A program made the position numbers and the translations under genes. Below, piece after piece: positions 13,001 through 14,892 of a DNA stretch of 64,000 bases. Source of the stretch: Dictyostelium discoideum (lineage: Eukaryota); NCBI GenBank assembly GCA_000004695.1, contig CM000153.2, positions 800,001 through 864,000 on the forward strand, read 5' to 3'. The stretch's first letter is position 1; every line of letters starts with the position of its first letter. The notes beneath the pieces were generated by a model that had not been told where the DNA came from, ran no database searches, and saw only the letters and a program-made list of their open reading frames with translations.

Positions 13001-13965
13001 ATTATTATTATTATTATTATTATTATTATTATTATTATTATTATTATTATTATTATTATTATTATTATTATTATTACTATTATTATGATTATTATGATTA
13101 TTATTATTATTACAAGAGATGGGCATTGATGGGATTGTTTTATTATTATTACTTTTATTATTATTATTATTACTTTTATTATTATTATTATTATTATTAT
13201 TATTATTATTATTATTATTATTATTATTATTATTATTATTATTATTATTATTATTATTATTATTATTATTATTATTATTATTATTATTATTATTATTATT
13301 ATTAGAGATGGACGTTGATGGAACAGTTTTATTATAAATTGGTTTTAATTTATGTGTACTTGGTAAAGGTTTTTGTAGTTGAGCTTGATAATCATTAAGT
13401 GAAATTTCATCAAGATTTTTTATTATACCAGTACAATTTAATTTAACTAAATCAGGGGAACCATCTGGATTAGAACTAAAGAAACTAGCTAAACTTGAAA
13501 TTTTTTGCATTGATCTTGATTTTTCAACAGAAATTTTTGGACTTCTGCTTTCTTTGTATTTTAAAGATTCCAATACTTTTTCACTAATCGTTTCTTCCAA
13601 TTTTTTAAATTGTCTTTGATATCTATGGAAGGTATTATATGATTTTTCATTAAAATTAGGTAAGAAAATTATTGATACTGATTGAAAACGTAATTGTAAG
13701 TCGATTAAATGTGAATGTTGATCTTTGAAATATTCATTCTTTGCGAATGCCATATCATCATATTGTTCTTTTTTAGAGGAATTATTAAATAAGATGATTA
13801 AATGTGGACTGCATGGATTATTGGTACTATCAGCTGCAATCCGAGAATATTGGACTAATCTATCATAAACATCAGCTCTATTTCCTGCATTGCTATCAAA
13901 TGTAAACACAAATACATCTGAACACAAATATAATAATCTTGGATATGAATATTGAATAAATGGAG
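10010..13965 (-). CDS. Copy B of the GTPase-patatin family. The 1305-codon body ORF is intact but the 5' exon (zinc finger plus GTPase G1-G3) is deleted, so it is 5'-truncated and possibly a pseudogene
   Basis: About 97% identical to copy C over 10010-13965. Homology to copy C breaks exactly at the exon-2 acceptor (...ttttttattgtag|aactccattt) and resumes with sequence that in copy C lies upstream of exon 1 (14040-14270 matches 20440-20800). No start codon or exon 1 is present. The patatin motifs GGGVRG, GTSAGG and DGG are intact. Confidence 0.65.
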
Positions 13966-14892
13966 TTCTACAATAAAAAAAAAAAAATTTGTAAAAAAAA
14001 AATTATTAAAAAAAAAAAAAAAAAAATTTAAAATTTTTTTTCTTTTATCAACTTAAAAATGCTTCCAAATTTTTCCACTTCAAAATTCAACCACTTAAAA
14101 ATGCTTCAAAATTTTTTTTTTTTTTTTTTAAAATCTTAAGTTTGATTTGGGCCAATATTTTTTTTTCAATTTTTAAAAAGAAAATAAAAAAAGGATTAAT
14201 AATAATTAAATTTAAAATTTGATACCAACAATTTTGAATTCTAAAAATAAACTTTTTTTTATTATTTTAAAGTCCCTTCAAATTTTTGTAATTACAAATA
14301 TTAATATGGTGAATTTTATAATTACAAATATTTTTTATTTTTAAAGTCAATACTGTGAGTGTAACTTAGAAAAAAAAAATTTTTATTTCTTTATTTTTTT
14401 TTTTTTTTATTTTAATTTTTTTTATTTTATTTTTTTTCTAAACCCCACAAATATATTTTTTTTTTATTTATTTATTTATTTATTTATTTATTTATTTATT
14501 TTTTTTTTTTTTTTGTATTTATTTTTTTATTCATTTATTTATTTATTTATTTATATATTTATTTATTTTATTTTTTAAATCAAAAATTTTATTTTTAGAA
14601 TTTAATTATTTATCATTCATTTTTAATTATTTTTTTATTTTGAAGAACAACAACTAGTGAATATATTTTATATAAAAAAATTAATTTGGTTGAATTAATT
14701 GTTATATTTTTTTTTTTTTTAAAAAAAAAAAATTTGAATGTTTGAATTAATAAATTAAAAACAACCTATCAAGATTTAATTCATTAATAAAAAAATAAAA
14801 ATAAAATAATTAATTCAGTCATGTTAATTTTTTTTTTCTCAATTGAACCCAAAAAAAAAAAAAAATTAAAAATAATAATAATAATTAAATTC

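Follow-up and report, generated by a model that had tools for sequence, protein, structure and literature searches.

The window analysed here, 64,000 nucleotides of Dictyostelium discoideum (contig CM000153.2, positions 800,001 to 864,000), carries a tandem array of genes whose products combine a GBP-like GTPase, a RING-like finger and a patatin lipase, and one member of the array, copy B, lacks the first exon. Copy B is probably (at about 0.55) a young, unprocessed, 5'-truncated pseudogene, a tandem duplicate of a GBP-like GTPase–RING–patatin gene in a birth-and-death array. We prefer this reading because it reconciles the constraint seen in the body of B with the universal conservation of the GTPase half in the family and with a missing start. 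Copy B would then be a case of ordinary gene decay, one more unprocessed duplicate truncated at its 5' end in an array shaped by birth and death and by concerted evolution, and the sole unexpected element of the case is the reversed selection signature of B and its neighbor, copy C. Coordinates are window positions, and the genes B, C, A and D and calreticulin are all on the minus strand, where the order from 5' to 3' is calreticulin, copy C, a 1.1-kb low-complexity spacer, copy B, copy A and relic D. The window has a GC content of about 22%.

20235-15506, minus strand: copy C, with its ATG at 20235, exon 1 at 20235-19615 (621 bp, 207 codons), an intron at 19614-19500 (115 bp) and exon 2 at 19499-15506 (stop at 15506)
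14002-10013, minus strand: body of copy B, 1331 open codons, with the stop codon at 10012-10010 and an in-frame stop directly upstream at 14005-14003
5455-9494, minus strand: copy A, the intact older paralogue (exon 1 9494-8836, exon 2 8733-5455; 1312 amino acids [aa]; about 74% nucleotide identity to B), used as the distant outgroup in comparisons
4031-4668, minus strand: fragment D, the second 5'-truncated remnant of the B/C type in the array, comprising the final ~220 codons (93-94% identity to B and C)

Extent of the deletion and the start of copy B

The body of B and the DNA downstream of it (14026-9886) aligned by blastn with exon 2 and the 3' flank of C (19545-15370; 93.9% identity over 4233 columns), and the DNA upstream of B aligned with the 5' flank of C in two blocks, 14268-14168 with 20801-20702 (86%, E 1e-25) and 14190-14026 with 20623-20458 (82%, E 2e-33). 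Since body, 3' flank and 5' flank all align to C, B is an unprocessed duplicate and not a retrocopy, and the homology of the 5' flanks implies that B once had its own promoter region. No exon-1-like sequence for B exists in the 64-kb window, where tblastn with exon 1 of C and of A matched only those two exons; the check for a displaced exon 1 nearby, called for in an earlier note on this DNA, thus came out negative. These alignments show that B goes back to a complete copy that had upstream DNA of its own, and that a single segment of 870-913 bp is gone. The earlier note had already proposed that B lost exon 1, that its upstream DNA matches a region far upstream of the start of C and that B arose when an internal deletion took exon 1, the intron and the DNA next to the promoter out of a complete copy with its promoter region; all of this is borne out, well beyond what chance would give and at essentially the coordinates it gave (the match is 14268-14026 with 20801-20458), and its figure of about 950 missing bp was too high. 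The body ORF (open reading frame) is intact, as it had also stated, with all 1331 codons open, no stop and no frameshift, and 1319 of the 1331, beginning with AGA at 13969, have homologous counterparts in exon 2 of C.

14026-14268, minus strand: retained 5' flank of B, homologous to C 20458-20801
14096-14075, minus strand: conserved block AAGTGGTTGAATTTTGAAGTGG in the 5' flank of B, present also in C (twice) and in three related genomes (L001, L002 and L008)
13971-14026, minus strand: T-rich stretch T19-AATAA-T10-ACAAA-T13-ATTG, of ambiguous origin, from upstream promoter T tracts (favored) or an intronic T tract
13962-13974, minus strand: deletion junction, ATTGTAG joined to AACTCC (exon 2 nucleotides [nt] 15-20), with AG as a possible 2-nt microhomology
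19486-20355, minus strand: segment of C without a counterpart in B on the favored reading (870 bp), which takes in the 120 bp before the ATG, all of exon 1 and of the intron, and exon 2 up to nt 14
19545-20458, minus strand: the same on the alternative reading (913 bp, one-jump alignment)

The three related genomes, which serve as outgroups, carry the locus as follows.

L001 (GCA_054859385.1): downstream of calreticulin, a single B/C-type gene that has exon 1 (1379 aa) is followed by an A-type gene
L008 (GCA_054859355.1): downstream of calreticulin, the arrangement of L001, the single B/C-type gene, exon 1 included, encoding 1434 aa
L002 (GCA_054859205.1, 'D. cf. discoideum'): downstream of calreticulin, one intact B/C-type gene followed by a second, rearranged copy, with no A-type gene at the locus

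Between its two flank blocks, C has a private tandem repeat of 88-90 bp (20620-20707 and 20487-20576, 96.7% identity) that doubles the upstream block AAGTGGTTGAATTTTTAAATGG; this block is single in B, L001 and L008, and L002 copy 1 has an internal short repeat of it.

In C, L001, L002 and L008 the intron ends in ...acaaaaattag and exon 2 begins with GA(A/T)GCT(C/G)AAATAAG AAC(T/A)CC. Copy B has neither this canonical acceptor nor nt 1-14 of exon 2 (GAAGCTCAAATAAG), and homology restarts at (AG)AACTCC; the break is therefore not exactly at the exon-2 splice acceptor, where it had been placed before. The k-mer across the junction is TTTTTTATTGTAGAACTCCATTTATTC. Placement of the breakpoint by a one-jump dynamic-programming alignment gave two near-equal optima. 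In the first, the break is at B 14027/14026 (C 20459 to 19545), 913 bp are missing and the T-rich 56 bp of B are assigned to the T46 tract of the intron; in the second, it is at B 13970, about 870-915 bp are missing and the 56 bp are assigned to the T29/T19/T14 tracts of the 5' flank. After the last upstream T tract, B reads T13-ATTGTAG, C reads T14-ATTGCACTGCG (20362-20352), L008 reads T13-ATTGCACTGTG and the two L002 copies read T10-ATTGCATTATAG (copy 1) and T11-ATTGTAGCGATAG (copy 2). ATTGTAG in B fits the motif ATTG(C/T)A(C/G/T), which in C, L008 and both L002 copies precedes the ATG by about 120 bp, and because T13-ATTGTAG continues this series we favor the second optimum (870 bp, C 20355-19486). 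The T-rich stretch and its TAG would accordingly come from the 5' flank and not from the intron, at odds of somewhat less than two to one, the call resting on a short motif in low-complexity DNA. The intron T tract as the right breakpoint is disfavored, not rejected: its score in a naive jump alignment is better by 5-7 units, yet ACAAA-T13-ATTGTAG would then call for additional events.

On either placement both ends of the deletion lie in or beside long oligo(dT) tracts, and a single deletion at these tracts may have removed the segment by slippage or by illegitimate end joining with 0-2 nt of microhomology. A tRNA- or retroelement-mediated rearrangement was considered and rejected; no tRNA genes were found in the window. 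The idea that the 5' flank of B is the orthologue of that of L002 copy 2 was unsupported by multiple alignment (about 20% divergence to everything).

The acceptor-like TAG of B is most likely fortuitous, being 5'-flank sequence that would once have preceded the lost ATG by about 120 bp (ATTGTAG in B, ATTGCAC in C). Its phase does not match that of the phase-0 exon-1 donor, and exon 1 of C joined to it runs into a stop after about 23 codons, on which grounds the splicing of C exon 1 to B through a read-through transcript was rejected. The sole phase-0-compatible AG within the first 300 nt lies inside coding sequence and lacks a pyrimidine tract. A different first exon farther upstream is also conceivable, and a single candidate is compatible in phase with the TAG/A look-alike at 13968/13967.

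15125-15141, minus strand: upstream 17-nt ATG mini-exon ATGAATGTAATCATTCT, with donor GTTTTT and a 1155-nt intron

Spliced in this way, B would encode exactly 1324 aa, the length of the B product annotated in an independent assembly (L007), and paralogue A also uses a GTTTGT donor. The implied intron is nevertheless 1155 nt long compared with 100-115 nt for those of A and C in the window, and the mini-exon sits in the 3' flank of C, in DNA of 10-15% GC, contributes just 5 residues and brings back no GTPase motif. The exact 1324-aa protein is not on record, and the annotated model is probably an ab initio rescue model, so that we hold this structure to be very unlikely.

The first in-frame ATG of B lies within the body.

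13751-13753, minus strand: first in-frame ATG of B (MAFAKNEYF..., 1247 aa), 216 nt downstream of the junction

The minus strand has no ATG between 14300 and 13917, and seven out-of-frame ATGs (13917-13758), opening ORFs of 3-20 codons, precede the first in-frame one. Promoters of Dictyostelium commonly have an oligo(dT) run immediately before the cap site. By this rule transcription of B would start at about the junction, and a transcript from the retained promoter would carry a 216-nt leader full of upstream AUGs. With exon 1 and the canonical acceptor absent, and with neither an in-frame AUG near the new 5' end nor an in-phase acceptor, B would now lack a usable start, and it is because the first in-frame AUG comes so late and after seven others that B is most likely a young pseudogene. 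Look-ups in Logan of two small ORFs at or above the junction found nothing. The arrangement resembles N-terminally truncated isoforms made from internal or alternative promoters in that upstream regulatory DNA is set beside a downstream coding body, but B differs from them in its start region and in having arisen by genomic deletion rather than by alternative promoter use.

The divided GTPase domain and its family

Exon 1 of C holds the P-loop GTSGSGKST and the motif DSEG. In an AlphaFold2 model of the N terminus of C (predicted template modeling score [pTM], 0.78; mean predicted local distance difference test score [pLDDT], 77), β-strands 129-135, 169-175 and 184-189 and the P-loop helix fall in exon 1, strands 230-236, 267-275 and 309-315 and further helices in exon 2, and helix 203-227 crosses the exon junction. 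Since strands and P-loop are split between the two exons, the deletion would halve one large-GTPase fold: the lost part is predicted to encode β1-β3, the P-loop and DxxG, and B to keep β4-β6 without nucleotide-binding motifs. Foldseek against the PDB grouped the N-terminal fold of C with hGBP1, atlastin-1 and RNF112 (E 4e-8 to 1e-7), large GTPases of the dynamin superfamily, among which RNF112 also pairs its G domain with a RING-type zinc finger. The C domain differs from these in sequence (11-16% identity), in the G4 position (LPHLII..N) and in its fusion to a patatin lipase, and B differs further in having no G1-G3 half. No Pfam GBP model matched the N terminus of C, and MMR_HSR1 was the only match, below threshold; the N-terminal module as a whole (19615-20235 plus 18200-19499, 431 aa) is covered by no Pfam model.

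A full HMMER scan with the first 431 residues of C retrieved patatin proteins of about 1000 aa from dictyostelids and fungi, aligned over residues ~7-400 as one module; homologues of this size with the same N-terminal module occur in dictyostelids and Pezizomycotina. The consensus of a 20-sequence alignment reads SFxGxTGxGKST ... DxEG ... R...YPRLLYxFSDV ... LPHLII..N ... YYSSIxVIxIP, and both of its nucleotide-binding motifs, G1 (GxTGxGKST) and G3 (DxEG), lie within exon 1. The combination that marks a GTPase of this kind, G1 GxxGxGKS/T plus G3 DxxG, is thus present in C, A and the homologues and missing from B, which starts at the R before YPRLLY. Copy B has the other two hallmarks of the family, the RING-like cluster and the patatin motifs (GGGxRG, GxSxG and DGG).

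11506-11438, minus strand: RING-like Cys/His cluster of B, present
11299-11279, 11197-11180 and 10765-10751, minus strand: patatin motifs DGGGVRG, GTSAGG and DGG of B (Pfam Patatin, E 1.1e-30)

The Cys/His columns of the RING-like cluster are nearly invariant in the 20-sequence alignment. With patatin-like phospholipases (PF01734; the fungal matches are annotated as iPLA2-gamma/PNPLA-gamma-like), A, B and C share the oxyanion motif GGGxRG, the serine of GxSxG and the aspartate of DGG; the dictyostelid proteins differ in carrying long poly-Asn and Ser/Pro-rich inserts. The family architecture comprises an N-terminal Cys cluster, the GBP/atlastin/RNF112-like large GTPase, the RING-like finger, the patatin lipase and a conserved C-terminal region (homologues P0002, P0003, P0007, P0019, P0080 and others), and it occurs in dictyostelids and many Pezizomycotina. 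Literature searches for the family or the locus returned nothing specific, and no functional study or biochemical data on any member. A protein search with the N-terminal 221 aa of B gave no matches in a collection that seems to lack or hide close relatives of the window proteins, judging from failed exact look-ups of the 1379-aa L001 protein and the 1324-aa B protein.

Substitution patterns, gene conversion and copy C

The bodies of B and C differ by 1.7-3.3% and those of either from the outgroups by 5-10%; the corresponding synonymous divergence (dS) is 0.035 versus 0.16-0.24, and the family background omega (the ratio of nonsynonymous to synonymous rates) is 0.2-0.4. Differences between B and C were polarized with all three outgroups and compared with a neutral expectation of 77% nonsynonymous changes, derived from the observed mutation spectrum on this sequence. 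The B-specific changes comprised 11 synonymous and 11 nonsynonymous ones (P = 0.005 versus neutrality) and the C-specific changes 4 and 22 (P = 0.49), a significant difference between the copies (Fisher test, P = 0.014); polarization with L001 alone gave 14/17 for B and 9/38 for C (synonymous/nonsynonymous). Derived changes were more numerous in C overall (54 versus 32; P = 0.02). All coding indels between B and C are multiples of three save for one frameshift in C, the six on the B side being all in frame. The omega of B is about 0.3 (95% interval, ~0.17-0.8), consistent with purifying selection on the body that may have acted before the deletion. Copy B shows neither the neutral pattern nor the stops and frameshifts expected of a pseudogene, although a very young lesion would look alike. 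Judged by these counts, headless B appears to have evolved like a working gene and complete-looking C like a pseudogene. The two copies can be told apart by peptides such as KHPFNFITYPLIKPK (B) and KHPFQLLANLVSKPK (C).

The frameshift of C is a +1 change at 15983-15988 (TTTCC-AAAATTC in B, TTTCCAAAAAGTC in C; the letters at the site are CCAAAATTC in B and CCAAAAAGTC in C) that leads to a premature stop at 15957 and the loss of about 150 conserved C-terminal codons. It is a compound change and not a simple homopolymer miscount. Farther upstream in C, at ~16533-16642 (B equivalent, 11042-11151), about 12 C-derived changes are clustered in some 28 nt, turning NFITYPLI, on which B and L001 agree, into QLLANLVS; this patch looks like one event, micro-conversion or templated repair, and not like independent substitutions, and no donor for it was identified. 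Given the frameshift and the 4 synonymous against 22 nonsynonymous changes, C appears to be dead. The earlier note had taken it as the intact reference, a role that does not suit a frameshifted copy with a neutral pattern beside a constrained B. For annotation, gene structure alone is misleading here, the copy with exon 1 being frameshifted and drifting and the copy without it looking selected. If C was already dead, the strain would probably be without a B/C-type protein and have only the older paralogue A left, and the common laboratory lineage may be a natural null for this protein, which is relevant to knock-outs of the family. Look-ups of the C exon-1 ORF and of the C post-frameshift ORF in other read sets found nothing.

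The same substitution counts are what a functional B would be expected to produce. Copy B may be transcribed from its retained promoter, starting at about the junction, and translated from the AUG at 13753 into a 1247-aa GTPase-less RING–patatin protein, which would be either an unregulated lipase or E3-like protein or else a regulator of, or decoy for, A, an account that we find possible, if doubtful. An omega at the family background and significantly below neutrality next to a neutral and frameshifted C, the six in-frame indels, the intact patatin and RING motifs and the retention of the upstream block and T tract right up to the junction are all consistent with it. For an old deletion it would be the natural way to read the selection data, and B could have been headless for a long time if the divergence of the 5' flank dates the duplication and the deletion bounded later conversion tracts. 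Set against this, the P-loop half is kept by every homologue recovered with a complete N terminus, from dictyostelids to fungi; the product is predicted to start after the G4-like LPHLII..N strand or else to carry an unfoldable half domain; seven out-of-frame AUGs precede its start; the constraint signal may pre-date the deletion; and B-specific changes in the leftover half-domain are too few to test for relaxation there. A stronger form of this account, in which B is a selected headless member (either a constitutively active lipase or E3-like protein or a decoy for, or regulator of, the full-length paralogue A), C the true pseudogene and the deletion an adaptive domain loss, seems unlikely. 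A natural GTPase-less allele would be a ready-made test of the role of the GTPase.

The age of the lesion is further complicated by exchange between the copies. The 103 mismatches between B and C are unevenly spread over the body.

11416-11896, minus strand: longest tract of B-C identity (481 bp), a candidate recent gene-conversion tract (permutation P = 0.0002)

In the two conserved blocks of the 5' flank, gap-tolerant pairwise alignment gave divergences of 3.1% for C-L008, 7.6% for C-L001 and 8.5-10.8% for B versus everything, and B and C mismatch at 16 of 189 positions there against about 6-7 expected from dS. The bodies give the opposite picture, with B and C differing by 1.7-3.3% and C and L008 by about 9%. 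A flank indel (GCATTTTTAAG in B and both L002 copies; GCA--TTTAAG in C, L001 and L008) likewise groups C with the single-copy lineages. The disagreement of flank and body trees and the excess of long identical tracts mark concerted evolution and show that the bodies of B and C have, on this sequence pattern, been homogenized by gene conversion, an exchange that would keep them similar. The simplest account would be a duplication at least as old as the lineage splits, with the bodies homogenized later and the single-copy genomes produced by collapse of the pair, leaving the 5' flank of C and the 3' flank of B; in keeping with this, 7 of 8 polarized differences in the 3' flank are C-derived.

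The argument of the earlier note that an ORF without stops means a very recent deletion is correct as to the open frame and weak as to the conclusion, since about 32 neutral substitutions leave the ORF open 13% of the time and since B and C exchange sequence. Such exchange raises the question of whether B is a long-dead pseudogene whose frame was kept open only by repeated conversion from C. Conversion is demonstrable, and in its 5' flank B differs from C as much as it does from other lineages; the direction is wrong, however, as it is C that has the frameshift and the neutral pattern and B whose specific changes are constrained, and a decaying donor cannot give an omega of about 0.3. We regard this history as quite improbable. 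On the young-pseudogene reading, the deletion would be young relative to the independent history of B, and it would be for this reason that B keeps a working-gene substitution pattern and an open frame.

Truncation and rearrangement recur at the locus, in fragment D, in the second copy of L002 and in the duplicated acceptor of the L001 intron; decay into truncated relics is thus demonstrable for this array and adds to the case for a young pseudogene, and the locus may evolve by birth and death. The second copy of L002 (7882-11867) keeps exon 1 (7882-8875) and has an inverted exon-2 piece (9720-9969) and internal deletions. In the intron of the single B/C-type gene of L001 (~3085-3185), the acceptor together with some 18 nt from the start of exon 2 is duplicated in tandem (aacaaaaattagGATGCTGAAATAAGAACAC, twice). 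The region of exon 1, intron and exon 2 start is rearranged in three lineages. Fragment D (640 bp) has its own frameshift near 4331 and 3' flank homology reaching ~3779; it lies downstream of A and is missing from L001 and L008, and a T17 tract precedes its 5' end by about 35 bp.

Weight of the readings and the neighboring DNA

An assembly artifact of near-identical tandem copies could in principle mimic the loss of exon 1, since B and C have bodies with 97-98% identity and the DNA around the junction is rich in homopolymers. The 5' flank of B is distinct, though (8.5% mismatched to C, plus indels), and the 103 differences are distributed over the body. In addition, an independent, long-read, chromosome-level assembly (L007; GCA_054883475.1), found by exact-protein look-up of the neighboring C2-domain gene and near-identical to the window (10 mismatches in 9.9 kb), has the same D-A-B order, with the last 1180 residues of B identical and an annotated B product of 1324 aa, about 200 too few for exon 1. 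An artifact is therefore extremely improbable. L007 shares the lineage of the window and so tests the assembly and not natural variation; the related assemblies are probably from a long-read study of AX2-214 and tropical isolates (PMC12745789).

We infer the present non-function of B, the youth of the deletion and its origin in a single event, and several observations weigh against the first two or qualify the evidence. An omega of about 0.3 and an intact 1319-codon frame are expected also of a functional gene, and the deletion is undatable from the window. The 95% interval on the omega of B permits neutrality for up to about 70% of the branch. Copy B keeps all catalytic and RING residues, the conserved upstream block and the oligo(dT) tract and could still be transcribed. 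The separate disabling of both tandem copies is somewhat improbable. The evidence of L007 on B consists of product length and the downstream 3.5 kb, the junction lying outside the part compared. Both alternatives of the earlier note, a very recent deletion and an expressed GTPase-less protein, are consequently still alive, and the sequence data modestly favor the first.

As a young pseudogene, B would be in familiar company. The human CYP21A1P/CYP21A2 pair is a textbook case of a partial-deletion pseudogene in a tandem array kept similar by gene conversion. The tgr family of Dictyostelium comprises 38 genes and 26 pseudogenes (PMC12745789). The B/C array shares with the unprocessed pseudogenes of such arrays the disabled tandem duplicate, the conflict between flank and body trees, the long identical tracts, the copy-number variation among relatives and the truncated relics. 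It differs from them in that the lesion-bearing copy shows a pattern of purifying selection and its complete neighbor is neutral and frameshifted, and in that the copies are disabled at different ends. The family is conserved from dictyostelids to fungi and its copy number varies between sibling lineages, a pattern usual for conflict or immunity genes.

The array is bounded and divided by the following features.

21742-20858, minus strand: ORF of calreticulin ending in HDEL (spliced product of 424 aa, 99% identical to a protein annotated in a Dictyostelium discoideum assembly)
14269-15369: spacer between the 3' flank of C and the 5' flank of B, 1.1 kb of 10-15% GC with (AAAT)n-like and short internal repeats

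Four Logan contigs (L003-L006; SRR28564540 and SRR26869258/66/68) correspond to window positions 22088-20821 and contain the calreticulin exon-2 ORF at 99.7-99.8% identity, encoding the same protein; contigs with this ORF are about 1.2 kb long and end at homopolymer runs, short of the B/C genes. Within the spacer, one internal repeat pairs 14956-14895 with 15223-15162 at 92% identity.

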